From sequence record EU863409: DNA of 64,000 nt. One strand, written 5' to 3'. Both the position numbers and the translations under genes were made by a program. Position 1 is the first letter of the stretch, and every line of letters begins with the position of its first letter. Positions 2,765 through 62,242 of this stretch are shown here, piece by piece. Source of the DNA: Escherichia phage JS10. The notes beneath the pieces are model-generated. The model had not been told where the DNA came from. It saw only the letters and a program-made list of their open reading frames with translations, and did no database searches.

Positions 2765-2794
2765 ATCGTATCACACTTTTAATCTGTTGTAAAC
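2765..2794 (-). promoter_or_regulatory. early-promoter-like element
   Basis: minus strand reads GTTTAC, 18-nt spacer, TACGAT. Confidence 0.45.
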
Positions 2795-2796
2795 CC

Positions 2797-2820
2797 CGAA
2801 AAGGGCCTTGCGGCCCTTAA
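2797..2820 (-). terminator. intrinsic terminator-like hairpin
   Basis: GC stem agggcc/ggccct with 4-nt loop, U-run on minus-strand RNA; directly downstream of the 53-aa ORF. Confidence 0.5.
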
Positions 2821-2982
2821 TTAGTTGCTTGAATCGACTCTATAAACTTGACCACGGGTTTGGTAAACTTCGCCGTCCCATGTTTCAACTGTGATAGTAA
2901 CGTACTCGGCAAAAAGAGGACGTGTATCTGTCCAGAGATAACCATATTCACCTGTGACGAGCGTAACCCAGTACTTTCTCAT
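2821..2982 (-). CDS. small hypothetical protein (53 aa)
   Basis: ATG at 2980-2982 preceded by AAGGAG 5-6 nt upstream; stop at 2821-2823; below track cutoff. Confidence 0.45.
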   Translation of the reverse strand: MRKYWVTLVTGEYGYLWTDTRPLFAEYVTITVETWDGEVYQTRGQVYRVDSSN

Positions 2983-3024
2983 AAAGTCTCCTTTTATACG
3001 GTACTCATGTACCGTACGTATTTA

Positions 3025-4842
3025 TTATGACATCCAAGCCTTGCGCAGCTGTGGGTCGTTTCCAAGGAGCATTTCGAACTGGTCTTTCCAATCTTCAGGT
3101 AATTGAACTACATCGAATTTAGGGTCTTGAATCATTCGACGGTATTCAGCCTTCTCAAGAGAACCGAGACCTTTAATATAACGAATAGAATGTTTTGGTA
3201 GAGAGTCCTTAGCTTTGGTATAACTAGGTACATCATAGAACCATTCCTGTTCTTTACCAACCTGAGCAATGATTACAGGAGTCTTACAGAAACGAATTCG
3301 TCCCTGTTCAAACAATTCCGGCCACTGACTAAAGAAAGCTAATAACGAAGGATAAATCGAACCAGTACCATCCACATCGGCGTCAGTCATGATAGCGATA
3401 TTGCGATAGTTGGTTTTATCTGCAGGTTCACCAATAACCAGTCCAGTGATTGCACAGATATCAAACAATTCTTTGTTCTTCATGATATCGGCAGCAGTCA
3501 TACCCCAGGTATTCATAACCTTTCCGCGTAACGGATAACCACCTTGGAGGTCTTTATTACGAACTTCAATGAAAGGACCCATTGCAGAATCACCTTCCGT
3601 AAGGAATAAAGTCGTATCAGCATCTTTGCCATACATATTGGCTTTAATATGCTTATGGACCTTGGCTTTCAAAGCTTTCTTAGCAGCTTTTGTTTCGGCT
3701 GCTTTTTCAGCAGCGAGTTTACGTGCTAAAGCTGCTTCGACAATAGGCATAATCAACCCATCGACCTTAAGAATAGCCGTTGCAATTTTCTTAGCATCAA
3801 TTTGGATATGGTTACGAATCTCACCAAACGGAGAGGTCAATCGCTCTTTAGTCTGTGAATCAAAACGCATATTGCTCATATCACGAATGAACATGACCAT
3901 CGTAAGGCATTCTTTAACACGAGCCTTAGTTACTTCGATTCCTTTATATTTCTTTTTAATACCAGGCAGAAGGTGCTCACAGATATCGTCAAACACACAT
4001 TCAACGTGATGGCCGCCATTCTTAGTATGGATATTGTTTACATACGTCAGTTGACGGAACCCGTCCGGAGAAGGAGTAAATGCCATCGAAACATTATCAG
4101 TTTCTTGGATTACAAAGTCTTCACCAAATTGCTTAGCATACTTTTTAAAGTTGCCATCTACTTTTTTACCATTAAAAGTAAATTGGATATCCGGATAAAT
4201 TACGGCCAGTGTTTGAAGACGGTCTAATGTAATATCCAGATAAATTTGGGACAGACTATTTTCTTCGAAATGGTTAAAGTCTGGGGTGAATATAACCGAA
4301 GTACCCTTACCTTTAGATTTCTTAGTAGACCAACCTTTGTTTTCCATTCCATTGGAACAGTTAACAGTAATCTCATTCTCACCATCAGAGGTGATGCCTG
4401 TGAACAAAACAGAGAAGATATTAGTTAAACTACTACCAACACCGTTCATGCCGCCTGTCTTACGCTCAGCGTCATCTCCAAAGTTACCACCGGCTTTTGG
4501 AATAGTCCATGCAGCTACAGGACCCGGAATTTGTTCACCGTTTTGGTCAGTAACCATTGCTTGAGGAATACCACGGCCATTATCAGAAACTGAAACCTGA
4601 TTATTCTTAATTTGAACATCGATTTTATTTGCGAATTTAAAATTGGTACGAATAGCTTCATCGACAGAGTTATCAATGATTTCGTCAATTAATTTAACCA
4701 GTCCAGGAACATAGTTCACCTGGGTAAAATTACCAAACAGGAATCGACCGTGAGCTTCATTAGCACTTGAGCCAATATACATCCCACTACGTTTTTTGAT
4801 ATGTTCAATGTCGGACAGTACTTTAATTTCATTCTTAATCAT
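3025..4842 (-). CDS. 39: DNA topoisomerase II large (ATPase) subunit, fused 39/60 type
   Basis: 605 aa; GyrB-like ATPase N-terminus; T4 synteny upstream of rIIA. Confidence 0.85.
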   Translation of the reverse strand: MIKNEIKVLSDIEHIKKRSGMYIGSSANEAHGRFLFGNFTQVNYVPGLVKLIDEIIDNSVDEAIRTNFKFANKIDVQIKNNQVSVSDNGRGIPQAMVTDQNGEQIPGPVAAWTIPKAGGNFGDDAERKTGGMNGVGSSLTNIFSVLFTGITSDGENEITVNCSNGMENKGWSTKKSKGKGTSVIFTPDFNHFEENSLSQIYLDITLDRLQTLAVIYPDIQFTFNGKKVDGNFKKYAKQFGEDFVIQETDNVSMAFTPSPDGFRQLTYVNNIHTKNGGHHVECVFDDICEHLLPGIKKKYKGIEVTKARVKECLTMVMFIRDMSNMRFDSQTKERLTSPFGEIRNHIQIDAKKIATAILKVDGLIMPIVEAALARKLAAEKAAETKAAKKALKAKVHKHIKANMYGKDADTTLFLTEGDSAMGPFIEVRNKDLQGGYPLRGKVMNTWGMTAADIMKNKELFDICAITGLVIGEPADKTNYRNIAIMTDADVDGTGSIYPSLLAFFSQWPELFEQGRIRFCKTPVIIAQVGKEQEWFYDVPSYTKAKDSLPKHSIRYIKGLGSLEKAEYRRMIQDPKFDVVQLPEDWKDQFEMLLGNDPQLRKAWMS

Positions 4843-4891
4843 GTTATTTCCTCATGTAGTAGGAGAATATTATCCCATTTCACTTAAAGCA

Positions 4892-4912
4892 TAAAAGGGC
4901 CGAAGCCCTTAA
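4892..4912 (-). terminator. UUCG-loop hairpin
   Basis: agggc-cgaa-gccct with flanking A/T runs. Confidence 0.45.
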
Positions 4913-5725: not shown

Positions 5726-5936
5726 TATAAGTTTCCTTCCAGAAGTCGGTGCCTTCAGCAGTGATTTCACGGAACACTGCATAGATAGGGTTTTTATCAC
5801 CTTGATTTTCGTATACATAAACCGACGATAAATGAGAAAACGTATCAGAATGTTCCTTTTGAACCACGATTAAATCAGGGTTGAACAGAACATCTTCAAA
5901 TTCTTCACGAGTCGAGTTCACAGTAACTTTAGCCAT
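5712..5936 (-). CDS. hypothetical protein
   Basis: 74-aa ORF; promoter-like element at 5955-5996 upstream. Confidence 0.45.
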   Translation of the reverse strand: MAKVTVNSTREEFEDVLFNPDLIVVQKEHSDTFSHLSSVYVYENQGDKNPIYAVFREITAEGTDFWKETYNDQI

Positions 5937-5954
5937 TTTATTTTCCTCTCATTT

Positions 5955-5996
5955 GTTGATAGGGTAATAGTATCACTACCCTACCGTATTGTATAC
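5955..5996 (-). promoter_or_regulatory. early-promoter cassette (variant -35)
   Basis: gttgatagggtaatagta...gtatac; minus strand gives GTATAC-N17-TACTAT. Confidence 0.45.
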
Positions 5997-6009: not shown

Positions 6010-6573
6010 TTATGCACGGTGAATGTTAGCATATTCAACAATAAAGCTTTCAGGAACAACCTTAAAGGTTCCAAGGAACACGATGTTATAGAGCTTAACG
6101 CCACCTTCAACCCACTGGTCTGTGATGTAACCAGACATGCTACTGGTTTCGTAAGTACCAAAAGGTTCGTCAACATATTTGAACGGTTTAGGAGTATTAA
6201 AACACACTCCTCGACCTAATTTCCATTTGAAATCAACGCCGACATGAGATTGGTCAATAGTTTCAACGTCTTGAGCTACTACGCCACGGATATCATTGCT
6301 TTCACATACATACCCATCATGGGATTCAACTTCTTCAACCACTGGGGTATGAACAAGTTCAGGAACTATTGGACGCGCTTTCCATCCCTTGGGAACCAAA
6401 GTGACATAACGTTCTTTAACGTAACCTACAAAAGAAGAAACGAAACCACTGGAACGAAATGCCTGGACTTTAACAAGGCCACGAGAGAAATTGAATCCAA
6501 TAATAATACATTTTTTACCAGCAACTTTAGATTTAGAATCTTCGGAAACCGTTACGATATCACCAATTTTCAT
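6010..6573 (-). CDS. hypothetical protein, paralog A
   Basis: 187 aa; C-terminal about 40 aa resembles the next ORF (DQWVEGGVKLYNIV...VVP). Confidence 0.55.
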   Translation of the reverse strand: MKIGDIVTVSEDSKSKVAGKKCIIIGFNFSRGLVKVQAFRSSGFVSSFVGYVKERYVTLVPKGWKARPIVPELVHTPVVEEVESHDGYVCESNDIRGVVAQDVETIDQSHVGVDFKWKLGRGVCFNTPKPFKYVDEPFGTYETSSMSGYITDQWVEGGVKLYNIVFLGTFKVVPESFIVEYANIHRA

Positions 6574-6650
6574 AATATTACCTTTTGTTTAGGAATTAGG
6601 TTTATTCTCCATAAGAGCCATTATAACATGGCTCTCGATAAAGTAAACTA

Positions 6651-7199: not shown

Positions 7200-7705
7200 A
7201 TTGTTCTCAATTCAATAAAATCTACGAGTTCGGCATAGGATTTGCGGAACATTACTTGGCGCCCACCGATGACAACCTCATCTTCAGGTATTTCGTAAAC
7301 AGCAAGATAGAATCCTTTAGAAGATAATTCTTCGCGCTCTTCACGAGTGAACCAGCGCATCATATCATACTCACTGGCAAAAGCAAAATGGTAGAGGTTA
7401 ACAAACCAGCCTGGAATATAATCATCACAGCCTTCATAATCAGGCTGGTTCCACTTAGTTCTAATGGTTTTATTAGAATTTTCCACCAACAACTTGTCTT
7501 GACCTGGTAGCGGAATATTTTTATTATTGGTATGGTGGTGTCTAAAATTAGGTTTGTCGAAACCTACTTCTAATAACCAACCTTCGCTCCATTCATCAAA
7601 CGAGCCTCTATATGGTGTTAATTGGCGGCACTGTTGGTGAGTGATTGCTATGACATCGCTGTTATCTAAGATACTGAACGATGACTCAACTCGATAAATT
7701 TTCAT
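7196..7705 (-). CDS. hypothetical protein
   Basis: 169-aa ORF; promoter cassette upstream. Confidence 0.5.
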   Translation of the reverse strand: MKIYRVESSFSILDNSDVIAITHQQCRQLTPYRGSFDEWSEGWLLEVGFDKPNFRHHHTNNKNIPLPGQDKLLVENSNKTIRTKWNQPDYEGCDDYIPGWFVNLYHFAFASEYDMMRWFTREEREELSSKGFYLAVYEIPEDEVVIGGRQVMFRKSYAELVDFIELRTI

Positions 7706-7719
7706 TTTGTTCTCCTCAT

Positions 7720-7761
7720 GTTGATAGGGTAGATAATATCATGTCATGAGGAGAAGTAAAC
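7720..7761 (-). promoter_or_regulatory. early-promoter cassette
   Basis: minus strand GTTTAC-N17-TATTAT, then conserved leader with GAGGAG RBS. Confidence 0.55.
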
Positions 7762-10312: not shown

Positions 10313-11062
10313 TTAACCTCTAATCAGTGAAAAAATTGAAGCATTCAGCGGAAGACCTTTTTTCAACTTCAATTTGTCAATAAAAGAAAGGTGTTCTAAA
10401 CGCTCCAGACCTTGAATAATTTTATCATACATATCGTAACGCGTTTCTGCTTCAGACAATTTAAACTTAACACGCCAATCAGGTCCACCAATTAAAGATT
10501 TAAGACCTTTTTCCATAGTACCGATTGAAGCATTAGAACCGTGGATACGGGCCTTAACTGCGATAACAGAAGGAGTCTTATCAGTAGCTCCCGATTTAAT
10601 AAGGTCTTTAAGACGTTTTTCACGTTTTTTAAGACCTCTTTGGGTATCTTTTATATTTTTAACGATTTTACGGATTTTATAATAGTTGTCAGGAGTAACT
10701 TTAAAACTATTAGGCATTTTAGAACTACCTGAAATACGAACTGCTAAACGAGTCTGAGCACGTTTCAGTTCATCAAGGGACAAATCGGCACGTAAGCTGT
10801 TATACTTAACTTTAACTGGGATTACATTACCCTCAATATAGCCGATATCGTTGTTAAAACGTTCAAATGAAATCTTATCATTAACTGAATTTTCATCAAA
10901 GTACTCGCCTGAATAAGCGCACACTTTTTGTTCGAGAAGTCTACGAACATACTTACTAGACAGATTGAAGTCCTTACCACGTTTATAAGCAGAAGCTTTG
11001 GTGTGTTTGCGGCGGTTGTAAACCTTTAACTCAAATTCATCGTTAGTTTTAATAGTAGGCAT
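10313..11062 (-). CDS. Srd-like protein (by position and size)
   Basis: 249 aa, basic; sits in the T4 srd slot between dda and modA; no motif confirmation. Confidence 0.4.
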   Translation of the reverse strand: MPTIKTNDEFELKVYNRRKHTKASAYKRGKDFNLSSKYVRRLLEQKVCAYSGEYFDENSVNDKISFERFNNDIGYIEGNVIPVKVKYNSLRADLSLDELKRAQTRLAVRISGSSKMPNSFKVTPDNYYKIRKIVKNIKDTQRGLKKREKRLKDLIKSGATDKTPSVIAVKARIHGSNASIGTMEKGLKSLIGGPDWRVKFKLSEAETRYDMYDKIIQGLERLEHLSFIDKLKLKKGLPLNASIFSLIRG

Positions 11063-11089
11063 GATATTTTCTCATCTTACGGACGATTA

Positions 11090-11130
11090 GTTGATAGGTC
11101 TATAGTATCATGTTGCTTGATAAAGTAAAC
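11090..11130 (-). promoter_or_regulatory. early-promoter cassette
   Basis: gttgataggtctatagtatca...gtaaac; minus strand GTTTAC-N17-TACTAT. Confidence 0.6.
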
Positions 11131-11199: not shown

Positions 11200-11814
11200 T
11201 CAGTAAGAAAGAACGGAAAGATTCCAAATGGTGTAATTATTCCATTTAGGATTTCTCTCAATAGAGTCTACGCGTAGCGTAGTTCCCGCAGGGAACATCA
11301 TCTCATCTTCATCATTAATTAATTGTAAGTTTGCTACACGTGTAGATTCAGGAAATGCGCCTGGGAACTCTTCAGGGGGCGCAGCACATAACATTTTAAA
11401 GATTTCTTCCTGATAATTGTACACAAATGGTGCATCATTAATACAAAAGATATTAAATGTGCCGTAGAAGTTATAAGATGCGAAATTCCTTGCTACGTTG
11501 AAGTCTTTAGAGAAGCTCATCACACGGTCGAATTCAATTACCGCACCCACACACATTGTGGACTCTAGATACTTCAGGGTCTTTTTAGATATACCGCGAT
11601 AGAGCTTATCAGGCACTACAGAAGTCAGGTTCTTACGAATAATTTTGTTCAGAGTTTCCTGGATAGAATCAGGTTTATTTTCCATACACTGCCAGAGCGT
11701 GCTCTGTTCTAAATCAGAATACACCTCATCAATTTCTATCTGGGTATTCTCACGGAAATCATCGCATTTGGCATTGTTGATAAATTCTGCTAATTTATGG
11801 CTTGGATATAACAT
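11200..11814 (-). CDS. modA: ADP-ribosyltransferase ModA-like
   Basis: 204 aa; LYRG motif; paralogous to next ORF; T4 order srd-modA-modB. Confidence 0.65.
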   Translation of the reverse strand: MLYPSHKLAEFINNAKCDDFRENTQIEIDEVYSDLEQSTLWQCMENKPDSIQETLNKIIRKNLTSVVPDKLYRGISKKTLKYLESTMCVGAVIEFDRVMSFSKDFNVARNFASYNFYGTFNIFCINDAPFVYNYQEEIFKMLCAAPPEEFPGAFPESTRVANLQLINDEDEMMFPAGTTLRVDSIERNPKWNNYTIWNLSVLSY

Positions 11815-11827
11815 ATTATTCTCCTCA

Positions 11828-11869
11828 GTTGATAGAAAGATAGTACCACAAGCTTCCTTGCCTGTAAAC
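11828..11869 (-). promoter_or_regulatory. early-promoter cassette
   Basis: gttgatagaaagatagta...gtaaac, overlapping the modB stop. Confidence 0.5.
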
Positions 11870-12438
11870 TAAAAATCCAACATTTTTAAATGAATTATTT
11901 TGTACTCGATTTCGTATGGGTCTCTTTTGATAGTTTCGATTTCCACAATCTCAAACCGTGATAGACTAGAGACCATGAACTCACATTCAGTTTCAACCAT
12001 ATCATAGAGGTCAATACGGGTTTCATCTATTTCAAGTTCGTCCACATTCCCTGCAAGAACAAGGTCGATAGCATGATTGTAGTAGTCAAAAATGAAGGGT
12101 GCATTCCTGAGACTTAAGATGGTTTTGGTTCCATATTCCCATGCCCCTGCGAACTGACGAGCCTGAGAGTATTGTGTACTAAAAGAAGTAACCCGACCAG
12201 GAGACCAGTGGCACCCTACTGAAAGGAGCTCTAATTGCTCAAGTTCTCTGGTGGTAATCCCACGATAAAGCTCTACCGGAACCACTGAAGTGACATGCTT
12301 ACGAACCAGTTTGTCTAGGTCGTAATGGAAGTTAGGGTCTTTTTTGGCATCCAGACATTTCTCTAACAACGCTTGTTCAGATTTTGAAAATTTGGAATTG
12401 ATTCGGTCTTGATAAAGACATTTTTGTTCGATGTTCAT
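11869..12438 (-). CDS. modB: ADP-ribosyltransferase ModB-like
   Basis: 189 aa; ELYRG motif; paralog of the modA ORF. Confidence 0.65.
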   Translation of the reverse strand: MNIEQKCLYQDRINSKFSKSEQALLEKCLDAKKDPNFHYDLDKLVRKHVTSVVPVELYRGITTRELEQLELLSVGCHWSPGRVTSFSTQYSQARQFAGAWEYGTKTILSLRNAPFIFDYYNHAIDLVLAGNVDELEIDETRIDLYDMVETECEFMVSSLSRFEIVEIETIKRDPYEIEYKIIHLKMLDF

Positions 12439-12440
12439 AT

Positions 12441-12462
12441 GACCTCCGGTGATTTAGAGGTC
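12441..12462 (-). promoter_or_regulatory. RBS-sequestering hairpin in modB leader
   Basis: inverted repeat gacctc/gaggtc (6 bp) with 10-nt loop; the GGAGG RBS lies in the 3' arm. Confidence 0.45.
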
Positions 12463-12491
12463 ATTATAACATGAAGGGAAGGGTTGTAAAA
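12463..12491 (-). promoter_or_regulatory. early-type promoter of modB
   Basis: minus strand TTTTAC-N17-TATAAT, directly abutting the hairpin. Confidence 0.5.
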
Positions 12492-13841: not shown

Positions 13842-14047
13842 AGGAAACCTCGTTTAAATTCAACCTTATCAATATCATCAGTCTCGTGACGGATTTCGGC
13901 GTTAAATTCGATAGAACCGTCTTCATGCATCATAAATGAATGGACAATAACTTCGGTATACCAAGGAGTATAGAAGTACTTTTTCAATACGTGATTAGCG
14001 ATAATTTCATCCAAAGTTTTATTTGGTTTAATCCAACGATTTAACAT
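13838..14047 (-). CDS. hypothetical protein
   Basis: 69-aa ORF. Confidence 0.4.
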   Translation of the reverse strand: MLNRWIKPNKTLDEIIANHVLKKYFYTPWYTEVIVHSFMMHEDGSIEFNAEIRHETDDIDKVEFKRGFL

Positions 14048-14114
14048 AGTGTTCTCCTCTATAAGATACGTCTATCTTAACATGGTCTACTCGTAAAGTA
14101 AACTACTAAAACGA

Positions 14115-14143
14115 AAAAAGGAACCCGAAGGTTCCTTATAATT
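14115..14143 (-). terminator. UUCG-loop intrinsic terminator after soc
   Basis: aaaaaaggaacccgaaggttcctt: 7-bp stem, cgaa loop, U-run on minus RNA. Confidence 0.6.
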
Positions 14144-14149
14144 AATCTA

Positions 14150-14383: not shown

Positions 14384-14413
14384 GCAATTCTCCTTTATGA
14401 TTAATTACAAATG

Positions 14414-14421
14414 TATTTATA
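14414..14421 (-). promoter_or_regulatory. late promoter TATAAATA for soc
   Basis: plus-strand tatttata; about 30 nt upstream of the soc ATG, with AAGGAG RBS in between. Confidence 0.6.
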
Positions 14422-14423
14422 CC

Positions 14424-14447
14424 AAAAAAGGAACCCGAAGGTTCCTG
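14424..14447 (-). terminator. UUCG-loop intrinsic terminator after soc paralog
   Basis: same aaaaaaggaacccgaaggttcct hairpin as at 14115. Confidence 0.6.
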
Positions 14448-14451
14448 GTAA

Positions 14452-16974: not shown

Positions 16975-16975
16975 A

Positions 16976-17416: not shown

Positions 17417-17702
17417 CTGTCACCTCTTTAACAATATTTTTGTTATCGAAATTAGCATCACAGTACAGAACATAGTTATACTGCATAACACCGCTGGAAG
17501 CCAATTGGTCGGATACTTCTTTAACCATATCAGGACGGTCCCGTTTAGTGATATTCATGATATCAGCGTAAATCTGATGTTCAACTGATTCTTGGTCTGC
17601 AGTCATAGACCATTCACAAAGGTCTTTATCCAATCCAGCCGTAACTGGAGCTGTACCACATGATGCTACTGTAAGGATTGCTGCGATTAATAACTTTTTC
17701 AT
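17409..17702 (-). CDS. secreted/periplasmic protein, Spackle-like by size and position
   Basis: 97 aa with N-terminal signal peptide MKKLLIAAILTVASCG; T4 sp is about 97 aa in the 61-41 interval. Confidence 0.45.
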   Translation of the reverse strand: MKKLLIAAILTVASCGTAPVTAGLDKDLCEWSMTADQESVEHQIYADIMNITKRDRPDMVKEVSDQLASSGVMQYNYVLYCDANFDNKNIVKEVTGE

Positions 17703-17718
17703 TTTTAACTCCTCATTA

Positions 17719-17760
17719 GTTGATAGGTCTATAGTACCACTACCATAGACCGATGTAAAC
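17719..17760 (-). promoter_or_regulatory. early-promoter cassette
   Basis: gttgataggtctatagtacca...gtaaac. Confidence 0.6.
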
Positions 17761-18346: not shown

Positions 18347-18664
18347 TTAGATTTCCTCACAGAAGGCCCATTCAGCGTGATAAACCGTAGCGCCTTTGGT
18401 ATCATTTAAACAAACCACATCTACCGGAGCAATTACACGATAAAGACGAGGTTCTCCTCCCACCGAACGAGCAGCTCGTCCAGCATAAATCTTAGCCAAA
18501 CCGATATCTTCAGTAAAGAACACACGATTTAGGTTTTTCTTACGACCAGTTTCAGACAGAACTCCTGTTTCCTCAGGAGGACAAAGCATATTACCAATAT
18601 TAGCAACACTACAACTTCCATGGTAATACACTTTATATTCCGCTTTACAGTCGATGGTTTTCAT
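18347..18664 (-). CDS. hypothetical protein
   Basis: ATG at 18662-18664 (MKTIDCK); track start 18676 is a TTG inside the promoter leader. Confidence 0.5.
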   Translation of the reverse strand: MKTIDCKAEYKVYYHGSCSVANIGNMLCPPEETGVLSETGRKKNLNRVFFTEDIGLAKIYAGRAARSVGGEPRLYRVIAPVDVVCLNDTKGATVYHAEWAFCEEI

Positions 18665-18676
18665 TTTGTTCTCCAA

Positions 18677-18717
18677 GTTGATAGGTCTATAGTATCATGC
18701 CTACAGGAGAAGTAAAC
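18677..18717 (-). promoter_or_regulatory. early-promoter cassette
   Basis: minus strand GTTTAC-N17-TACTAT-AGACCTATCAACTTGGAGAAC-ATG. Confidence 0.6.
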
Positions 18718-18727
18718 CCTTAAAACA

Positions 18728-18748
18728 AAAAAGGAGCCGAAGCTCCTT
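18728..18748 (-). terminator. UUCG-loop hairpin after gene 41
   Basis: aaaaaaggagccgaagctcc. Confidence 0.55.
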
Positions 18749-26981: not shown

Positions 26982-26998
26982 TATAATTTCCTCATGTA

Positions 26999-39031: not shown

Positions 39032-39058
39032 TATACTCTGGTCCCAAGAGTTTGTAAA

Positions 39059-39259
39059 CTATTTTTGTGCTAATGCACCTTTCCAACCTTCATACATCAT
39101 TGCGGCTGATATTAATATTGCTCCTGCGCATTTTGAATATTTGTTATTCCAAAACCAGTTTAGAAAAACTTCGTCATCAATACCTTGAGCTATCATATTT
39201 TCAAAGAATTGACGACGGGCTTCAGCAATTCGTTGTGATAATTTAGATTCAGGATTCAT
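39059..39259 (-). CDS. hypothetical protein
   Basis: 66-aa ORF. Confidence 0.4.
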   Translation of the reverse strand: MNPESKLSQRIAEARRQFFENMIAQGIDDEVFLNWFWNNKYSKCAGAILISAAMMYEGWKGALAQK

Positions 39260-39949: not shown

Positions 39950-40138
39950 AATTTAATTTCCTTAGCTATCGAACAAAATACACCACGGTCACAAATCATT
40001 TTAATATTAAGGTCAATTATGGTATACCACACATCCAGGCTAGATATTTCAGTTACTAGAACAGCTTTGCCGTTGATTGAATAATACTGGTTGACTTTAA
40101 TTTCTTTATCTTGGATAGTCATAATGTTCTCCTCGTGT

Positions 40139-40180
40139 GTTGATAGGATAGACTATAACACGTGAGGAGAGGAAGTAAAC
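40139..40180 (-). promoter_or_regulatory. early-promoter cassette
   Basis: gttgataggatagactata...gtaaac. Confidence 0.5.
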
Positions 40181-44399: not shown

Positions 44400-44415
44400 G
44401 ATATTCTCCTCAGTA

Positions 44416-44457
44416 GTTGATAAAAGGATTATACTCCATCCATCCTTGGATGTAAAC
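44416..44457 (-). promoter_or_regulatory. early-promoter cassette
   Basis: minus strand GTTTAC-N17-TATAAT (perfect -10), GAGGAG RBS in leader. Confidence 0.6.
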
Positions 44458-46547: not shown

Positions 46548-47072
46548 TTATGCGAGAACCGTCTTTAAACGCTCTTCAAATTTCTGAAGCAGAGCTTGGC
46601 GTTCAGCTCGTTGTGATTTGTACTGCTCGATACGACCTGAAGTGAGGGCGTACTGTTCGTTTACTGATTCCCGCATGAATTCAGGAATCTCTTTACAAGC
46701 TTTGATTTCGTCAAACTTATCAATAACCGCTTGTTGTTCGGCAATCAAGTTATCAAAATAAGCGATATCTGATTTAACGTTTGCCAGGTCAGATTCGGTA
46801 GGCATTAAACGTTTATTACGCTCAGCTTGATAAGCTTGGTTGGTTTCACGACTCCAGTGAAGAGTACGTTTTTTGTTGGTGTTTTTATAGAGCTCTACAA
46901 TACCAACTGAATCGATGATAGCAATCCAGTTCCAACGGTTTTTGTAAATCTCTCCTCCAGATACGGTAATCTCATTACCACAAGCAACATCATTAAAGAA
47001 CTTGCTTTGTTTTTCAGATTTGAAATTACCATTGTTAAAATTAATCAGTGAAAAAATATCTTTAGCGTTCAT
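46548..47072 (-). CDS. hypothetical protein
   Basis: 174-aa ORF. Confidence 0.5.
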   Translation of the reverse strand: MNAKDIFSLINFNNGNFKSEKQSKFFNDVACGNEITVSGGEIYKNRWNWIAIIDSVGIVELYKNTNKKRTLHWSRETNQAYQAERNKRLMPTESDLANVKSDIAYFDNLIAEQQAVIDKFDEIKACKEIPEFMRESVNEQYALTSGRIEQYKSQRAERQALLQKFEERLKTVLA

Positions 47073-47086
47073 GATAACCTCCAGTA

Positions 47087-47127
47087 GTTGATAGGTCTAT
47101 AGTATCATGTCTAATGGAGATGTAAAC
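47087..47127 (-). promoter_or_regulatory. early-promoter cassette
   Basis: gttgataggtctatagtatcatg...gtaaac. Confidence 0.6.
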
Positions 47128-47481: not shown

Positions 47482-48462
47482 TTATTTCAGAAGGGTAACT
47501 TCGGCGATTTCGCTCCAGTCATTTTTATCGGTGGCAATGAAGTCCGCCAGATAAAGAGCTGTACGTAATGATACGTTACGAAGACGAGATACATTGGCCT
47601 TCATCCATGCTAGAGCTTGATAAGTCTCGGCATCAGTCAGACCTCGGTTTTGCATCATATCGGTGGACAGGATAACGTCTTCAACACGAACCATAATCTC
47701 TTCGTTCGAGTGAACTCCGAGGTCTAAGTAAACTGAACGAGATACTAAAGCCTGGAGGTGTGGAGCAAGTTTAGTGCCACGTTCTAATTCACGGTCAATA
47801 TCAACGTTGGTGATGAATACGATGGTGCCTTCATATTCGAATTCTTTATCGATATTTTTATCATCGAGATAAGAACTTGAAGTGCTCCAGCACACCTTAC
47901 GTTTCTCACCGGTATCCAATGCGGCTTTCAGAAGGTTCAGGATATCCATGTCAGAGAATACATCAACATCATCAATAAGAAGAACACTATTAGGGCCGCG
48001 GTTATTCCAAAGTTGCTCGTAAAGACCGATTCCACTAATCTTTCCGTTGATTGATTTATATTCGATAGTTTCATTTTCGTGGGCATTTTGTAATGCTTTA
48101 TCCAAAGAGTATGTTTTACCAATACCTGCGGCACCAGAGATGATAAGGGAACGAATTTTACCATCAATGATTCCGTTAGTCATCATGTTCATTACTTTAA
48201 AACGTTTGTTGATGCGATGTTTCATTTCTTCAGCAGATTCAGTAACCATTGCAGGAGCTTCAGCACCTTCCATTTCAACGTCACATTTGAACACCCATAC
48301 ACCACGTTCAACACCATCAATCTGTACAAATACCTTGCCATCACCGAGGTGAGCTTCAGATTCATGAATTTTATTAGGGAACCAGGTTTTACCTGAACTC
48401 ATGAACGTACCAGAGATTTCATTACCGCGATAGATACCTTTGTTGATTTTGATAGTTAACAT
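47482..48462 (-). CDS. AAA-type ATPase
   Basis: Walker A GAAGIGKT and Walker B VLLIDDVD; ATG at 48460-48462 with AAGGAG RBS (track start is an upstream GTG). Confidence 0.6.
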   Translation of the reverse strand: MLTIKINKGIYRGNEISGTFMSSGKTWFPNKIHESEAHLGDGKVFVQIDGVERGVWVFKCDVEMEGAEAPAMVTESAEEMKHRINKRFKVMNMMTNGIIDGKIRSLIISGAAGIGKTYSLDKALQNAHENETIEYKSINGKISGIGLYEQLWNNRGPNSVLLIDDVDVFSDMDILNLLKAALDTGEKRKVCWSTSSSYLDDKNIDKEFEYEGTIVFITNVDIDRELERGTKLAPHLQALVSRSVYLDLGVHSNEEIMVRVEDVILSTDMMQNRGLTDAETYQALAWMKANVSRLRNVSLRTALYLADFIATDKNDWSEIAEVTLLK

Positions 48463-48485
48463 TTTATTCTCCTTCACTCAGTAGA

Positions 48486-48526
48486 TTTGATAGGTCTATA
48501 ATAACATGTTTAAAGCAGATGTACAC
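48486..48526 (-). promoter_or_regulatory. early-promoter cassette, copy 1 of a duplicated pair
   Basis: gataggtctataataacatgtttaaagcagatgtacac; same 38-nt string recurs at 48797-48838. Confidence 0.5.
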
Positions 48527-48528: not shown

Positions 48529-48759
48529 TTATTTTGCAATAATTTCACAGAAGCCATCTTTATAGCGGGCCCATGTTTCACCATTTACTGTATAAAGAGC
48601 AGCTTTACGACCATTAGGCATAACAACTTGTTTACCTTTGTTTTTAGTTACAGCTTCAATAATTTCGTATTCTTCAGCACGATCAGCTTTAAAGGTATCT
48701 TCCAGAGCGATCAAGTTAGTAGTGTAAGAACCGTATTTGTAATTTTTGATAGCGTACAT
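48529..48759 (-). CDS. hypothetical protein
   Basis: 76-aa ORF flanked by two identical promoter cassettes. Confidence 0.5.
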   Translation of the reverse strand: MYAIKNYKYGSYTTNLIALEDTFKADRAEEYEIIEAVTKNKGKQVVMPNGRKAALYTVNGETWARYKDGFCEIIAK

Positions 48760-48796
48760 TTTTATATCTCCGTTTGGTTTAAGTTTTCAGCTCTTT

Positions 48797-48838
48797 AGCT
48801 GATAGGTCTATAATAACATGTTTAAAGCAGATGTACAC
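48797..48838 (-). promoter_or_regulatory. early-promoter cassette, copy 2
   Basis: identical core to 48486-48526. Confidence 0.5.
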
Positions 48839-48858
48839 TACTTTTTTGCACTAAACCC

Positions 48859-48882
48859 AAAAAAGGCCCGAAGGCCTTTTAT
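48859..48882 (-). terminator. UUCG-loop terminator
   Basis: aaaaaaggcccgaaggcctttt. Confidence 0.55.
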
Positions 48883-51655: not shown

Positions 51656-51892
51656 TCACCAGTATTTGTTGATAGTAGAAATTAATTCTTGGGCCTGGGT
51701 AGTCTTCAGTTTACATCCACAACCCTTTAATGTGTCTTTAAGGAGCCATGGTTCCTTGAGCTCGTCCTTTTCTAGACGAATTCTGTATCCTCGATAATCG
51801 GCAAAGATACTTCGGTCGTCGAATATCTTAATCTCAAGGATACGACCGTTGATTTCATATTCTAATGAAACCGTAGTACTTGTAAGTTTCAT
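51656..51892 (-). CDS. hypothetical protein
   Basis: 78-aa ORF downstream of a promoter cassette. Confidence 0.45.
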   Translation of the reverse strand: MKLTSTTVSLEYEINGRILEIKIFDDRSIFADYRGYRIRLEKDELKEPWLLKDTLKGCGCKLKTTQAQELISTINKYW

Positions 51893-51908
51893 ACTGTTCT
51901 CCTCATTA

Positions 51909-51949
51909 GTTGATAGGTCTATAGTATCACGTTCCTAGAGGATGTAAAC
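51909..51949 (-). promoter_or_regulatory. early-promoter cassette
   Basis: gttgataggtctatagtatcacg...gtaaac. Confidence 0.6.
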
Positions 51950-51960
51950 ACTAAAACGAA

Positions 51961-51986
51961 AAAAGGTCCCACCGAAGTGGGACCTT
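51961..51986 (-). terminator. hairpin terminator
   Basis: aaaaaggtcccaccgaagtgggaccttt. Confidence 0.5.
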
Positions 51987-51989
51987 TGA

Positions 51990-55556: not shown

Positions 55557-56015
55557 TTAAAGATAGATTACTTTCGTGCTGGTTTTACCTTCTAAACGTT
55601 TAGAGTTAACAAATGCCATACGACATTTTAATGAATACCCTTTATCAGGATGTTTACGATCTACGGTCATACCCAACCATAAGGTTTTATCGGTAATCTC
55701 GAGACGCAGTGGACGATACACTTTACCTGGGACAATTTCAGATTCTACGTCAGGAAGAGGCTCCTGGATTAAAAATTCATGGATTTCTTTAACATGATTG
55801 TGGAGCTTCTTGAACAAAGAGAAAACATATTTTTCGTCAATTTCACGTTGGATAGCACGGTCCAACAAGTGATTAGAGTACTTAATAAAGAAAGCTGGGA
55901 CACCGCTCTTAATGGCGGCTTTTTTGATGGACGCGTTAAGTTCACGAAATTCGGTTTCGAACTGACGACGTAATTTGTTGCGGCGGATGAATACTTCTGA
56001 ATTAATTTCTGACAT
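55557..56015 (-). CDS. regB: RegB endoribonuclease
   Basis: 152 aa; EVFIRRNKLRR-FE-EFR... and HLLDRAIQREID... blocks match T4 RegB. Confidence 0.85.
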   Translation of the reverse strand: MSEINSEVFIRRNKLRRQFETEFRELNASIKKAAIKSGVPAFFIKYSNHLLDRAIQREIDEKYVFSLFKKLHNHVKEIHEFLIQEPLPDVESEIVPGKVYRPLRLEITDKTLWLGMTVDRKHPDKGYSLKCRMAFVNSKRLEGKTSTKVIYL

Positions 56016-56031
56016 TTTGTAATCTCCTGTA

Positions 56032-56072
56032 GTTGATAGGTCTATAGTACCACGTCTACAGGAGATGTAAAC
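56032..56072 (-). promoter_or_regulatory. early-promoter cassette
   Basis: gttgataggtctatagtacca...gtaaac. Confidence 0.6.
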
Positions 56073-57544: not shown

Positions 57545-57844
57545 TTAGAAAGAACCAGAACCTTTAATTGTATTCTGGCGACCTTTATTTTCTAATTCAG
57601 AGTGGTCGATTTCGTATGCTTGGGCTACACCAAAGGCCTTTTTAACTTTAGCTAAAGAGCCTTTAGATGTAACAATATTAAAAGTATTACCTTTAGTAAA
57701 ATCAACCAAATCCACTTGTACGCCCTGTTTACCGAGGCTTGCTACAATAGCATCAACATATTCTTGGTCTAAGGTGCCTTGGACACCTATTTGGAATGCT
57801 TTAGGAGCTTTGGCTTCTGTAATAAATTCTTGATAGGTTTTCAT
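57545..57844 (-). CDS. internal protein (capsid-targeted), IP family
   Basis: 99 aa; N-terminal capsid-targeting sequence MKTYQEFITEA as in T4 IPs. Confidence 0.65.
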   Translation of the reverse strand: MKTYQEFITEAKAPKAFQIGVQGTLDQEYVDAIVASLGKQGVQVDLVDFTKGNTFNIVTSKGSLAKVKKAFGVAQAYEIDHSELENKGRQNTIKGSGSF

Positions 57845-57856
57845 ATTATTCCTTAA

Positions 57857-57898
57857 GTTGATAGAAGTATTCTATCACGGATTTAATTAAGCGTAAAT
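57857..57898 (-). promoter_or_regulatory. early-promoter cassette (variant -35)
   Basis: gttgatagaagtattcta...gtaaat. Confidence 0.45.
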
Positions 57899-58303
57899 AG
57901 CCTTGCCATAGTGTTTGTACCAGGTAGGGCGTTGTGCAATTTTTTCGTCCAAACGGGCTTGTGAAATAGCGATAGAAGCTTCGTGAGGAACATAATCACC
58001 ACGGAATTCCTGAGGAATATCACTAATGTCCTGGACTGTAGTATCCTTGATATTAAAGCCACGTTTTAAACATTCGGCTATAAGCTCGATTTGACGCTTA
58101 CGTAAAAATTCAAGCTTATCATAAAAGAATGTAACGTGGCCTGTACCAAGGATAAAAGTAGGGCTGATTTTAAAATCACGAACACGTTTACCGTTAGCAA
58201 CATGCTTACGAACTGCACCGAAAACACGTGGTAATTCACGATATTCAGCCATTAAGTGTTGGTCAGCCAATTCAGATACTAAGGTAAGGTTGATACGAGT
58301 CAT
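57887..58303 (-). CDS. denV: endonuclease V (pyrimidine-dimer DNA glycosylase)
   Basis: 138 aa; essentially identical to T4 DenV ([34 protein letters not shown]...). Confidence 0.95.
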
Positions 58304-58318
58304 TTTTAATCTCCTGTA

Positions 58319-58359
58319 GTTGATAGGTCTATAGTATCATGCCTACAGGAGAAGTAAAC
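58319..58359 (-). promoter_or_regulatory. early-promoter cassette
   Basis: gttgataggtctatagtatcatg...gtaaac. Confidence 0.6.
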
Positions 58360-58799: not shown

Positions 58800-59396
58800 T
58801 TAATTACCACGGGCTGCATTAGCAACGGCGTAAGCGTACTGAATATTAGCGTCTTTAAACGTACCTTTAGAGGTATCTAGCTCTGCCTTAAAGCCGGCTT
58901 TAGTCATAACATCGGCAAATTCTTTACGGAAAGCCATTGTATCAAGACCTTTCCATGCTGATTTATGCTTGGCAAATTCAAGACCAGCGAAGTTGACTGC
59001 TTTAGCCAATTTATTATCAATAGTCCATTTACCTGCTTTAGGCACAAATATCGGACCTTTCTGTTTAGAGAATAGTTTTAAATTCCAGCGACGAAGGTCG
59101 CCGTCGGCTTTAACAAAAGCTGCGTCCAAGTTACTAGCAACAACATCTTGAATATGGCCAAATTTAAGCCCATCAGCTTCAATATTTAGGTCGTTACGCC
59201 AGCGAAGTCCTTCCCAGGCGAAAGCTTTAAAGTCGGAAGCTTTTGTAGCTAAATACCGTTCAATAGGAGCTGTTTTAGCGTCAAAGCCGTTTCCTGGGTT
59301 GTCAACGCCGTTTCCTCGGTAGGTCCACTCATCTTTATTAATGCCTTTGACCTTTCCTGCAGTAGCTTCGGTGATAAATTCTTTATACGTTTTCAT
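58800..59396 (-). CDS. internal protein (capsid-targeted), IPIII-like
   Basis: 198 aa; N-terminus MKTYKEFITEA; basic. Confidence 0.6.
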   Translation of the reverse strand: MKTYKEFITEATAGKVKGINKDEWTYRGNGVDNPGNGFDAKTAPIERYLATKASDFKAFAWEGLRWRNDLNIEADGLKFGHIQDVVASNLDAAFVKADGDLRRWNLKLFSKQKGPIFVPKAGKWTIDNKLAKAVNFAGLEFAKHKSAWKGLDTMAFRKEFADVMTKAGFKAELDTSKGTFKDANIQYAYAVANAARGN

Positions 59397-59434
59397 ACGG
59401 GTCCTTCAAATGTAAATTTAATTAGTCTGTTCAA

Positions 59435-59475
59435 GTAACTGTAGATATACTATCACAATTCTAGGAGATGTAAAC
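59435..59475 (-). promoter_or_regulatory. early-promoter cassette (degenerate)
   Basis: gtagatatactatcac...gtaaac. Confidence 0.4.
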
Positions 59476-60450: not shown

Positions 60451-60679
60451 CGTCTCGTTCCCATGATTGTTTAAAGATATCTCGTATAATAATTTCAACA
60501 CACGTTTCTGTTGACGGACTTTCACTATCAGACACTTGAATCATATAATCAGAAATAGGTCGGAACATATCCAAGTCGCTTTCTAAATCTTCTTTGATTT
60601 TCTCTTCTGATGTTCCTGTGTCATAGGAATACAGATAAGAATCGCATGACTCGGATTTAATATAAATCGCAATACTCAT
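60443..60679 (-). CDS. hypothetical acidic protein
   Basis: 78-aa ORF. Confidence 0.4.
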   Translation of the reverse strand: MSIAIYIKSESCDSYLYSYDTGTSEEKIKEDLESDLDMFRPISDYMIQVSDSESPSTETCVEIIIRDIFKQSWERDDE

Positions 60680-61263
60680 TTACGGCATTCCTCAATAAAA
60701 GAATTTAATGTATTTTTCTTAGTGATATCGTCATACACCTTTTTAACTTTAGAAATACGAAAAGGTACTTCAATAACTGCAGTCCATAAAAATGATGCGA
60801 TAAGTCCTAAGATGGCCGCAGACATCGCTGAAGCGAATACACTAATGGGTAAGTCATTATCTGTTGTCAGGAAAAACCCTAGGAGTGGGAAAAATAATAT
60901 CCCCATCCAAACATAGAACCTAGAACTCACTAATTTGTCGTATTCATCACTCCATGTACGGAAGCCGTATTTTTTACTATAACAAATCAATGGGTCTGGT
61001 GTCTGTTCTTTATGGGGTTCTGGTTGCCAACCATTTACGATATAGCCCATTTTATATTCCTCAATTAAAAGTTGTTTCATTTCAGCAGTACAACCCGACC
61101 AATCTATTGTACTGGCTGAAATTCCTTCATCACCATCATCAATATTTCGCCAGGACTTTTTAATAATCATATTCTCACCACTTGGGATAATGATTCCGGC
61201 ATTTTCTGACCGACGGATGAAGTTTACATCAACACCCATGCAACCAGGTTCATAAAGGGCCAT
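60676..61263 (-). CDS. membrane protein
   Basis: 195 aa with C-terminal hydrophobic helices. Confidence 0.5.
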   Translation of the reverse strand: MALYEPGCMGVDVNFIRRSENAGIIIPSGENMIIKKSWRNIDDGDEGISASTIDWSGCTAEMKQLLIEEYKMGYIVNGWQPEPHKEQTPDPLICYSKKYGFRTWSDEYDKLVSSRFYVWMGILFFPLLGFFLTTDNDLPISVFASAMSAAILGLIASFLWTAVIEVPFRISKVKKVYDDITKKNTLNSFIEECRK

Positions 61264-61949
61264 TACCAGCCCTCCATAGGAAATTCCAGATATACTTGAG
61301 CATTAACACGGATTTCATTAGTAATCTTTTTAACACGGTCAGTATTACGAGAGACACGACCAAACCAGCGCCAACCGTTACTTACCGCACGAGAACCCGT
61401 ATGCCATGTCTGCCAATCAAACTGGAGCAATGTGCGGTCAGGAGCATCCCACTTGGTTAATTCATTGGACTCAATTTTTTCCAGAACTTCTTTATGCCAC
61501 TGGCGATAGATAAGTTCGCCTTCAGGAATCTGACTAAATTGCGCAGTTCCGGTTGCAAAATAAGTAGGACACACATCAGCGTTAACAAGACCAAGAATAT
61601 GTTCAGAATGGTATCGAGGATTATCATAATCAGGTTGGCCTGCGGTAATAAAGTGTTGACCCACCGGAATATCCGGACGTGGTACATCATCATGGTGATA
61701 ACCTGGGATAGCAGGATACCAACCAGGCATAAGCATATGAACTCGGGAATCAAATACAACCTGGTCGGTGTTCCACTCATCTGGCAGGTTCATAATGAAG
61801 CTGCGAGTAATAGGGCCACCATTATCAAAAGCGAAAGCCAATGAGCTGTTGAAGAACATAGTTTCGTTTTTGATTTTATCGTTAGAAATTTTACCGGCAA
61901 AACTACCCACTGCACGAGCTTGAGAATTAAAAGTTTTCGGGCTGTTCAT
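61263..61949 (-). CDS. hypothetical protein
   Basis: 228-aa ORF, His/Asp-rich. Confidence 0.5.
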   Translation of the reverse strand: MNSPKTFNSQARAVGSFAGKISNDKIKNETMFFNSSLAFAFDNGGPITRSFIMNLPDEWNTDQVVFDSRVHMLMPGWYPAIPGYHHDDVPRPDIPVGQHFITAGQPDYDNPRYHSEHILGLVNADVCPTYFATGTAQFSQIPEGELIYRQWHKEVLEKIESNELTKWDAPDRTLLQFDWQTWHTGSRAVSNGWRWFGRVSRNTDRVKKITNEIRVNAQVYLEFPMEGW

Positions 61950-61963
61950 AATATTTTCCTCAA

Positions 61964-62188
61964 TTACTTTTTGTTGAAAAAGTACATTTTACCTTTAGGG
62001 GATAAGGATACACGAAGTGCGTTACCGATACCAACTGAACATTTAACCAGGTCAGCAGATTTCAATTCACCAAATGCTTGACGAAGGTCACCGTCACGAG
62101 TGTTAACCATCAGACATTTAGCACCAGCTGCACGAACTTCATTTAACATGTTGATTGCTTGGTTAGAAAGTTTCATTTTATTCTCCAT
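61964..62188 (-). CDS. hypothetical protein
   Basis: ATG at 62186-62188 or 62174-62176 (MENKMKLSN), downstream of the promoter cassette; track start 62254 lies upstream of that promoter. Confidence 0.45.
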   Translation of the reverse strand: MENKMKLSNQAINMLNEVRAAGAKCLMVNTRDGDLRQAFGELKSADLVKCSVGIGNALRVSLSPKGKMYFFNKK

Positions 62189-62202
62189 TTCACTCTGTTG
62201 TT

Positions 62203-62242
62203 TTGATAGGTCTATAGTATCACACCTATAGACCTTGTATAC
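62203..62242 (-). promoter_or_regulatory. early-promoter cassette (variant -35)
   Basis: ttgataggtctatagtatcac...gtatac. Confidence 0.5.

Follow-up and report, generated by a model that had tools for sequence, protein, structure and literature searches.

Early promoters of the T4-type phage JS10 enclose co-varying hairpins that may insulate immediate-early genes from read-through

Early promoters of phage T4 combine an UP-like A-tract, a GTTTAC hexamer, a TGn motif and a -10 element at -12 to -7 (PMC2988021, PMC1524935). Early transcripts extend into downstream genes, and middle RNA derives partly from such extension (PMC2988021). Two further observations from T4 concern RNA structure: it shields GGAG sequences from the nuclease RegB, and at genes e, soc, 49 and I-TevI there are established hairpins that carry an embedded promoter and conceal the ribosome-binding site (RBS) (PMC3014915). 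Promoter early stem-loops (PeSLs), modules of an early promoter, a stem-loop and an RBS that are repeated in hyperplastic regions, have been described in RB49/phi1, PST/T4 and nt-1/KVP40 and implicated in the shuffling of open reading frames (ORFs) (Arbiol et al. 2010, PMC2839356; Comeau et al. 2014, PMC4122927). Their stem-loop lies mostly between -35 and -10 or over -10 in RB49/phi1 (PMC2839356) and 5' of the promoter in PST/T4 (PMC4122927), and 'PeSL-like sequences' of phage JS98 were mentioned in passing (PMC2839356). In this report, we analyse the early promoters in a 64,000-nucleotide stretch of Escherichia phage JS10 (record EU863409; hereafter the window) and describe a hairpin, embedded in many of them, whose two arms co-vary. 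The early-promoter set of JS98-like phage and the PeSL concept are known already; the co-varying promoter-embedded hairpin, and a null result for indels at gene junctions, go beyond what was known.

The window comprises the 64 kb nearest rIIA in a JS98-like Dhakavirus (Tevenvirinae) and covers the classical T4-type early/middle region. It begins at rIIA, at exactly the same start as the JS98 record, and is 97.1% identical to JS98 over the full alignment (97.5% over 46-52 kb). The gene order is rIIA, 39, motB, dexA, dda, srd, modA/B, soc, 56, 61, 41, uvsX, 43, 45, 46/47, 55, 49, nrdC, tk, regB, denV, ipIII and e, all on the minus strand, and a greedy set of 128 minus-strand ORFs spans ~95% of the sequence. 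An Rfam scan of the whole window brought no family to its gathering score.

A first-pass annotation of this DNA had proposed that a repeated cassette serves as an early promoter, and motif scans bear this out. GTTTAC-N15-19-TACTAT has 8 exact matches, all on the minus strand, against 0.06 expected from shuffles, and the 21-mer GTTGATAGGTCTATAGTATCA has 11 matches with at most 3 mismatches against 0 expected. A profile built from 12 copies recovered more minus-strand copies and no credible match on the plus strand, and a loose T4-type scan returned 38 minus-strand candidates versus 9 on the plus strand. All seven positions that the annotation had listed carry the motif, and both ends of its range, 2765 and 62242, are promoter-like sites. 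We curated 24 sites, defined as minus-strand candidates that lie 18-50 nt 5' of an ORF start and have an RBS; all are on the coding strand. Their consensus is aaaaaa..GTTTAC-atc..ct..a..cgTG.-TActAT-agacCTAtcaAc, that is, an A-rich, UP-like tract ('aaaaaa' at about -8 to -3 relative to the -35 hexamer), GTTTAC, a spacer of 17-18 nt, TGn-TACTAT, AGACCTATCAAC and a GGAG RBS, so that the conserved leader with GGAG noted earlier is present as well. The early-gene orthologues behind these sites include cef, motB, motB.2, srd, modA, modB, sp, imm, regB, denV and ipIII.

These sites resemble T4 early promoters in the GTTTAC hexamer, the 17-18 nt spacer, TGn, a TAnnAT element, the A-rich tract at ~-40 and additional conserved positions, and they too precede immediate-early genes. 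They differ in that most -10 elements read TACTAT instead of TATAAT, that the start region AGACCTATCAAC is strongly conserved, and that ~10 copies are homogenised in the Dhakavirus lineage. These copies have become one 'denV-type' cassette, probably by recombination or gene conversion among themselves. The window denV copy is ~90% identical to the region 5' of T4 denV, where T4 carries GTTTACATCTCCTGTAGGTATGATACTATAGACCTATCAACTACAGGAGA, and the cassette matches in T4- and RB69-type genomes sit 5' of denV or regB. Given the consensus match and this homology at denV and regB, the elements are orthologues and paralogues of T4-type early promoters. The sequence evidence (T4 consensus, strand specificity, position 5' of ORFs and homology to T4 at denV) thus identifies the repeated motif as putative sigma-70-dependent early promoters, read by host polymerase, of a JS98-like T4-type phage.

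When the copies are read side by side, the promoter spacer turns out to be the reverse complement of the sequence just past the -10 element, of the RBS, or of both. In one class (regB, motB.2, 55.6, nrdC.8 and denV) the spacer pairs with the RBS; in a second (the 62242 site, cef, motB and 55.2) it pairs with 8-12 nt that start inside or just past the -10 element. The promoters with such pairing are listed here, all on the minus strand; z denotes the folding z-score against composition-preserving shuffles, and RBS exposure the predicted probability that the RBS is unpaired, in the promoter's own transcript and then in read-through RNA from upstream.

58301..58359, minus strand: denV early promoter cassette; spacer TCTCCTGTAG pairs with the RBS region CTACAGGAGA; z -5.3; RBS exposure 0.43 and 0.02.
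56013..56072, minus strand: regB early promoter cassette; spacer ATCTCCTGTAG pairs with the RBS CTACAGGAGAT; z -4.6.
7703..7761, minus strand: motB.2 early promoter; spacer TTCTCCTCATG pairs with the RBS CATGAGGAGAA, a stem that is a compensatory variant of the regB stem; z -6.5; RBS exposure 0.73 and 0.00.
40120..40180, minus strand: 55.6 early promoter; spacer-to-RBS stem; z -5.0; RBS exposure 0.49 and 0.01.
47070..47127, minus strand: nrdC.8 early promoter; spacer-to-RBS stem with one mismatch; z -2.0; RBS exposure 0.23 and 0.00.
12436..12491, minus strand: modB early promoter (TTTTAC); GACCTC, between the -10 element and the expected start, pairs with the RBS GGAGGTC; z -3.6; RBS exposure 0.38 and 0.00.
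62174..62242, minus strand: early promoter (GTATAC); spacer AGGTCTATAG pairs with CTATAGACCT, which spans the -10 end and the start site; z -3.6.
17700..17760, minus strand: sp (spackle) early promoter; spacer GGTCTATGG pairs with CTATAGACC; z -2.8.
5934..5996, minus strand: cef early promoter; GGTAGGGTAGTG pairs with TATTACCCTATC across the -10 element, with the core TAGGGTA/TACCCTA; z -4.5.
6571..6648, minus strand: motB early promoter; AGAGCCAT pairs with ATGGCTCT, on either side of the -10 element; z -3.0.
38987..39059, minus strand: 55.2 early promoter; GGGACCA pairs with TGGTCC(T), on either side of the -10 element; z -2.0.
26979..27041, minus strand: imm early promoter; ATACCAC pairs with GTGGTAT inside the spacer and -10 element.

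Folded from the spacer to the ATG, the 24 window promoters have a mean z of -2.13, with 10 of them below -2, versus a mean of -0.03 and 7% below -2 for 104 gene junctions that lack a promoter (Mann-Whitney p=3e-6). Overall, the averages for promoters run from -2.1 to -2.4. The pairing is specific to each promoter: a spacer folds with its own leader at -10.3 kcal/mol versus -7.4 kcal/mol with the leaders of other promoters, and 0 of 20,000 permutations reached the observed mean (p~5e-5). At regB, a hairpin of -16 to -21 kcal/mol is present in the orthologues of all six lineages compared, with a stem sequence that is different in each; that of T4 is UUUUCCUCUUGAC / GUUAAGAGGAGAA and includes two G-U pairs. 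Chimeras that join the regB spacer of one lineage to the leader of another lose 8.3 kcal/mol on average, and the native assignment ranks first among all 720 permutations. The same architecture is found in T4-like, RB69-like and other T4-type loci (mean z -2.3 to -5.6), and among 90 distinct promoters 37 have spacer-RBS pairing, 44 have pairing between the spacer and the sequence past the -10 element, 18 have both and 27 have neither. Together, these statistics support the view that the embedded hairpin is a selected inverted repeat with co-evolving arms. Spacer/leader complementarity of T4 early promoters was not described in the literature that our search covered; older subscription papers lay outside that search, and a prior description there is possible.

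What this inverted repeat does was approached by comparing predicted folds of the two RNAs in which the RBS can occur. The expected start was placed 7 nt after the -10 element, at the central A of AGACCT-A-TCAAC. Over the 24 promoters, the mean predicted probability that the RBS is unpaired is 0.50 in the promoter's own transcript versus 0.28 in read-through RNA (Wilcoxon p=5e-6), and for denV, regB, nrdC.8, 55.6, modB and motB.2 the read-through value is 0.04 or lower. Mononucleotide shuffling of the upstream part gives a mean of 0.39, with 1 of 60 shuffle sets as low as the observed value. Our data suggest a model whereby the 5' arm lies in the spacer between -35 and -10 and the 3' arm just past the -10 element, on the RBS, or both, such that a promoter's own transcript would start within the inner stem's 3' arm or beyond it. 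Because that transcript would begin past the 5' arm and lack it, the RBS, in a leader of ~20-25 nt with a GGAG-type sequence, would stay open. RNA arriving from upstream would contain both arms and fold, which would either bury the RBS or place a stable hairpin at the gene boundary. A buried RBS would prevent translation, shield its GGAG from RegB and possibly bring about Rho-mediated polarity. Promoter-proximal copies would thus be translated and then cut by RegB, and read-through copies of immediate-early genes would be silenced. Hairpins that stop short of the RBS are candidates for nucleating an outer stem, protecting 3' ends or attenuating transcription. We consider it likely that the elements are early promoters with a selected hairpin that insulates immediate-early genes from read-through; the transcription start sites, the action at the RNA level and the effects on expression are what we infer here.

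The closest functional parallel is the set of T4 hairpins at e, soc, 49 and I-TevI. There too the 5' arm lies 5' of the proximal start, and long transcripts hide the RBS or AUG, as is predicted for a subset of the window promoters. In the T4 cases, however, the promoter is a late (gp55) promoter and the hairpin delays expression to late times, whereas the embedded promoter of the window is of the sigma-70 early type, serves many genes and would confine translation to the immediate-early burst. None of the embedded promoters is of the late type (TATAAATA, read by gp55). The arrangement would work like the T4 late-promoter hairpin family in mirror image and, its embedded promoter being early, is not a member of the described set.

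A second device that may insulate early genes is an upstream terminator. The window holds 8 UUCG-loop hairpins and 1 GCAA-loop hairpin with GC stems and T-runs, all on the minus strand, and five (51987, 48880, 18748, 14137 and 2818) lie 7-23 nt 5' of a -35 element. Those at 51987, 48880, 29835, 18748, 14446, 14137 and 4910 have the GC stem, UUCG loop and T-run, on the coding strand, of intrinsic UUCG-tetraloop terminators, and they are elements separate from the promoter-embedded hairpins. The cassettes had been described as often paired with UUCG hairpins, which is too strong: only 5 of the 24 early promoters have an adjoining upstream terminator hairpin, four with a UUCG loop and one with a GCAA loop. 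Among the three copies cited as examples, those beside 18728 and 48859 do follow a UUCG hairpin, but the hairpin at 14424 is followed by the late promoter TATAAATA of a soc-like ORF. The embedded hairpin is weaker where a terminator precedes the promoter: across all phages the mean z is -1.03 for terminator-preceded promoters (n=15) versus -2.88 for the others (n=75; p=0.0017), and in the window 0 of 5 terminator-preceded promoters have a z below -2 versus 10 of 19 others (p=0.047). This is expected if both devices insulate a gene from upstream transcription, and the embedded hairpin and the upstream UUCG terminator may be two alternative insulators against read-through. The promoters with an upstream terminator, the remaining promoters and the late-promoter site are as follows.

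18662..18748, minus strand: UUCG terminator hairpin (18748..18731) and early promoter (-35 at 18717) of an orf34-like gene; spacer TTCTCC pairs with GGAGAA.
51890..51987, minus strand: UUCG terminator hairpin (51987..51962) and early promoter (-35 at 51949) of a 78-aa ORF.
48757..48880, minus strand: UUCG terminator hairpin (48880..48861) and cassette (-35 GTGTAC at 48838) of ORF-A; upstream copy of the pair that flanks ORF-A.
14045..14137, minus strand: UUCG terminator hairpin (14137..14118) and early promoter (-35 at 14103) of mrh.2.
2744..2818, minus strand: GCAA-loop terminator hairpin (2818..2801) and promoter (-35 at 2794, -10 TACGAT) of a 107-aa ORF.
11060..11130, minus strand: srd early promoter cassette, without a strong embedded hairpin.
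11812..11869, minus strand: modA early promoter.
44397..44457, minus strand: nrdC.4 early promoter.
57842..57898, minus strand: weaker promoter (ATTTAC...TAGAAT) of an internal-head-protein-like ORF; z -2.3.
59394..59475, minus strand: ipIII early promoter (GTTTAC...TAGTAT).
63662..63722, minus strand: divergent promoter-like site (ATGTAC...TACTAT) of an 82-aa ORF.
14405..14446, minus strand: UUCG terminator hairpin (14446..14429) and then the late promoter TATAAATA of the soc-like ORF; not an early cassette.

Several of these sites have neighbours worth recording. The hairpin at 14137..14118 is identical to that at 14446..14429, yet precedes an early promoter. The same AGGAACCTTCGGGTTCCT UUCG hairpin stands before both the soc-like 77-aa ORF (14150-14383) and an extra 80-aa ORF (14452-14694), and in the region 14118-14699 JS98 and four other relatives are ~300 bp shorter (553 versus 248 bp), so that the variable module here is bordered by a duplicated terminator hairpin. 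At 29816-29835 a UUCG terminator-like hairpin (AAAGGGACTTCGGTCCCTTT) lies just 5' of gene 43. The 93-aa ORF that precedes this hairpin is incomplete in phage VR5, where 194 bp are absent. Two of the ORFs preceded by promoters occupy places where the JS98 RefSeq record shows no gene, namely the 107-aa ORF (2423-2746, between rIIA.1 and gene 39) and the 78-aa ORF (51656-51892, between mobD.3 and rI.-1).

Several points weigh against a hairpin that insulates early genes at the RNA level. About 7 of the 24 window promoters (27 of 90 overall) lack spacer pairing, so that pairing is not obligatory, and the hairpins with both arms 5' of the start do not touch the RBS. The accessibility drop over all 24 promoters is moderate relative to the shuffled-upstream null (0.28 versus 0.39), and the start from which it was computed is extrapolated from the T4 convention that places the -10 element at -12 to -7. 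No consensus structure emerged when 11 regB promoter regions were aligned with MAFFT and folded with RNAalifold, because the stems sit in different registers between lineages; column-wise covariation is for this reason not applicable, and folding of cognate versus chimeric pairs, with permutations, was used instead. The promoters of related phages are not fully independent data points. Finally, folding favours the sense over the antisense strand by 1.0 kcal/mol (p=0.003, n=70 promoters), an asymmetry that is small and is not significant in the window alone (p=0.12); it mildly favours a role at the RNA level and, being weak, leaves room for one at the DNA level.

The best-surviving alternative, which we nevertheless regard as unlikely, is that the cassettes are primarily mobile modules whose conserved sequence serves as a crossover point for the excision and insertion of small ORFs by way of mini-circles. 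The composite architecture fits the PeSL definitions (PMC2839356, PMC4122927): like PeSLs, the window cassettes combine an AT-rich tract, a sigma-70-like early promoter, a stem-loop, an RBS and a start codon and are repeated in early regions. The stem-loop is upstream in 5 window copies, as in PST/T4, and of the RB49 type in most, so that the PeSL-like architecture proposed in the first-pass annotation holds for the composite, with the typical stem-loop embedded in the promoter rather than being an upstream UUCG hairpin. They differ in that the RB49 stems consist of a G-run and a C-run and were read as terminators, whereas in the window a CTCC-rich 5' arm often faces the RBS as 3' arm, and in that the window and six relatives show no significant association with indels under a gene-junction null. 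Copy number is a further point in favour of the mobile-module reading, with cassette matches at 7-12 places per Dhakavirus genome versus 1-3 in T4-/RB69-type genomes (Tequatrovirus and Mosigvirus), and the window regB cassette is 92% identical to its denV paralogue versus 72% to the T4 regB promoter region, which suggests homogenisation or replacement of cassettes. Clustering of 45-nt cores yields ~10 near-identical copies (58359, 56072, 48838, 48526, 47127, 18717, 51949, 11130, 17760 and 62242), and those at 18717 and 58359 are identical over 41 nt, that is, over tens of bp, a length sufficient for recombination. An earlier count of about 20 near-identical 40-bp copies does not stand, as an identity of at least 80% over 45 nt is reached by only 13 of 276 pairs and the other ~14 sites have no more than the T4-type early-promoter consensus in common; only the ~10 copies share enough identity (~40 bp) to recombine.

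The clearest case for exchange is the nrdC.11/nrdC.10 locus (48.46-48.90 kb), where three alleles occur. In the window and in JS98, ORF-A lies between two near-identical cassettes (48838 and 48526); in IME341 an unrelated ORF lies between two cassettes; and IME281, QL01, VR5 and U155 have one hybrid cassette and no ORF. That hybrid lends support, of a comparative kind, to deletion or mini-circle formation by recombination between copies. The parts of this locus other than the upstream cassette are given here.

48529..48759, minus strand: ORF-A, 76 aa, a cassette-flanked module that is missing or swapped for a different ORF in relatives.
48460..48526, minus strand: nrdC.10 cassette, the downstream copy of the pair; its core GTGTACATCTGCTTTAAACATGTTATTATAGACCTATCA is the same as in the 48838 copy.

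ORF-A (JS98 49270-49497) has a patchy distribution: conservation is 100% across 9 Dhakavirus-type records, and identity falls to 40-54% in CC31/PG7-, PEi20- and EcS1-type phages. The ORF is equipped with a cassette promoter and an RBS of its own, and neither JS98 record annotates it. The 48838 and 48526 copies have GTGTAC instead of GTTTAC as the -35 element and a MotA-box-like TGCTTTA within the spacer; a middle promoter was considered for them and rejected, as TGCTTTA lies 7 nt from the -10 element versus the published 11-13 nt (PMC1524935). On our main reading, too, cassette homology probably lets small ORF modules be gained or lost occasionally, as at nrdC.11/nrdC.10.

Across the window, the association of cassettes with indels depends on the null that is applied. 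We compared the homologous 64-68 kb of six Dhakavirus genomes (IMG/VR loci) by chained BLAST alignments and obtained 59 unique indel or replacement events, after excluding the gap events of IMG/VR contig 2974741249 (U155; loci L027, L042, L061 and L069) as likely assembly artefacts. That contig (155,101 bp) lacks dozens of blocks relative to the window, each very close to 100 bp in length and scattered in conserved genes, and these gaps look like an artefact of the assembly or record rather than biology. In 18 of the 59 events a boundary lies no more than 20 nt from a cassette, versus an estimated ~5 for uniformly placed boundaries. Whole-gene indels, however, must end at gene junctions, for which reason a gene-junction null was used in place of the uniform one, and under it 21 of 101 boundaries fall at cassette-bearing junctions versus 15.6% expected (p=0.10), which is no significant enrichment. 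Most indels have a cassette on one side or on neither. Many breakpoints adjoin a cassette simply because the cassette fills the whole intergenic space. In addition, recombination leaves the compensatory co-variation of spacer and leader unexplained. Overall, recombination at cassettes happens, and it is not demonstrated as the dominant source of variation in the window. The proposal that cassettes bracket variable segments and drive their shuffling is accordingly weakly supported: comparison among relatives yields one clean two-cassette locus and the regB-denV similarity in its favour, with the junction test and the prevalence of one-sided or cassette-free indels standing against it.

Other differences from the relatives are recorded for completeness. 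At 56078 (the upstream edge of the regB cassette) and at 58359 and 59476 (the denV and ipIII cassettes), homology with relatives breaks repeatedly, 0-16 nt 5' of the -35 hexamer. At 56078 an additional 209 bp occur in QL01 and IME341; QL01 also lacks orf114, and IME281 lacks ipIII. Here the stop codon of the preceding gene adjoins the -35 element, and the cassette thus occupies all of the intergenic space. The segment 6345-6598, the 5' end of motB with its leader (~250 bp), has no nucleotide-level match in the six relatives (252 bp replaced by ~251 bp) and ends on the right ~25 nt 3' of the -10 element of the motB promoter; it looks like a window-specific motB N-terminal allele. The window lacks orf29 (16972-16977; 190 bp, present in all six relatives), gp46.1 (35074-35078; 204 bp, present in JS98 and QL01) and orf81 (42674-42686; 140-336 bp, present in five relatives); all three places are simple gene junctions, and none has a cassette nearby.

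Slightly less probable again is the possibility that the embedded stem-loops are terminators or attenuators of upstream transcription rather than translational masks. In its favour, one RB49/phi1 PeSL stem-loop, of a kind proposed to act in this way, cut expression of a downstream lacZ as strongly as the rrnB T1 terminator (PMC2839356), a drop in reporter activity that cannot separate termination from a translation block with Rho polarity. The weaker hairpins behind canonical terminators would suit attenuation too, as they fit any insulating role, and the hairpins formed by the spacer and the sequence past the -10 element do not involve the RBS. On the other hand, the embedded hairpins are followed by ATCAAC-type sequence with no U-run, whereas the true terminators of the window have GC stems, UUCG loops and T-runs. 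Stems with loops of ~23 nt make poor intrinsic terminators, and the 3' arm coincides with the RBS in 37 of 90 promoters, which termination would not need.

We regard it as improbable that the inverted repeat acts as DNA, as a cruciform, a single-strand hairpin or a site for a dimeric protein that modulates early promoters or recombination. Several of the stems between the spacer and the sequence past the -10 element have loops of 4-8 nt and could extrude, the mechanism by which early promoters are shut off is unexplained (PMC3014915, PMC2988021), the authors of PMC2839356 speculated on a DNA-binding protein that recognises the PeSL stem, and the energy gap between sense and antisense strands is small. 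However, the arm sequences differ fully across promoters and lineages while their complementarity is kept, which argues against a sequence-specific protein site; the ~23-nt loops of the spacer-RBS stems are unfavourable for cruciforms; and the stems contain G-U pairs (T4 regB and 17760), with the sense strand significantly more stable over the 70 promoters. That the hairpins are a by-product, of descent from one palindromic ancestor or of CTCC-rich spacers meeting GGAG by composition, can practically be set aside, for although non-cognate spacers and leaders already pair at -7.4 kcal/mol and near-identical copies share both arms by descent, cognate pairs exceed non-cognate ones, the z-scores use composition-preserving shuffles, different promoters have unrelated arms (AGAGCCAT/ATGGCTCT, TAGGGTA/TACCCTA, GGACCA/TGGTCC and TTCTCCTCATG/CATGAGGAGAA) and the regB stem sequence differs in each lineage.

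For PeSL-type claims, our analysis advises caution, as the statement that cassettes drive shuffling fails the gene-junction null here, apart from one locus. If the promoters are insulated by their hairpins as proposed, transcripts from a gene's own promoter would be translatable and open to cleavage by RegB, and read-through and middle-mode transcripts would be silent and RegB-resistant. Expression of regB, denV, modB and motB.2 would then be limited to the first minutes of infection. Such a device would account for the insulation from read-through of early genes that are closely spaced and co-directional, and also for the short burst of immediate-early proteins, several of which are toxic enzymes. 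The regB and denV promoters of T4 show the same pairing and are ready test cases. More tentatively, and with less confidence than we place in the window promoters themselves, we suggest that most immediate-early promoters across T-even-type phages may lie in a co-evolving hairpin of this kind, which would make it a general, uncatalogued 'promoter-gated' switch.

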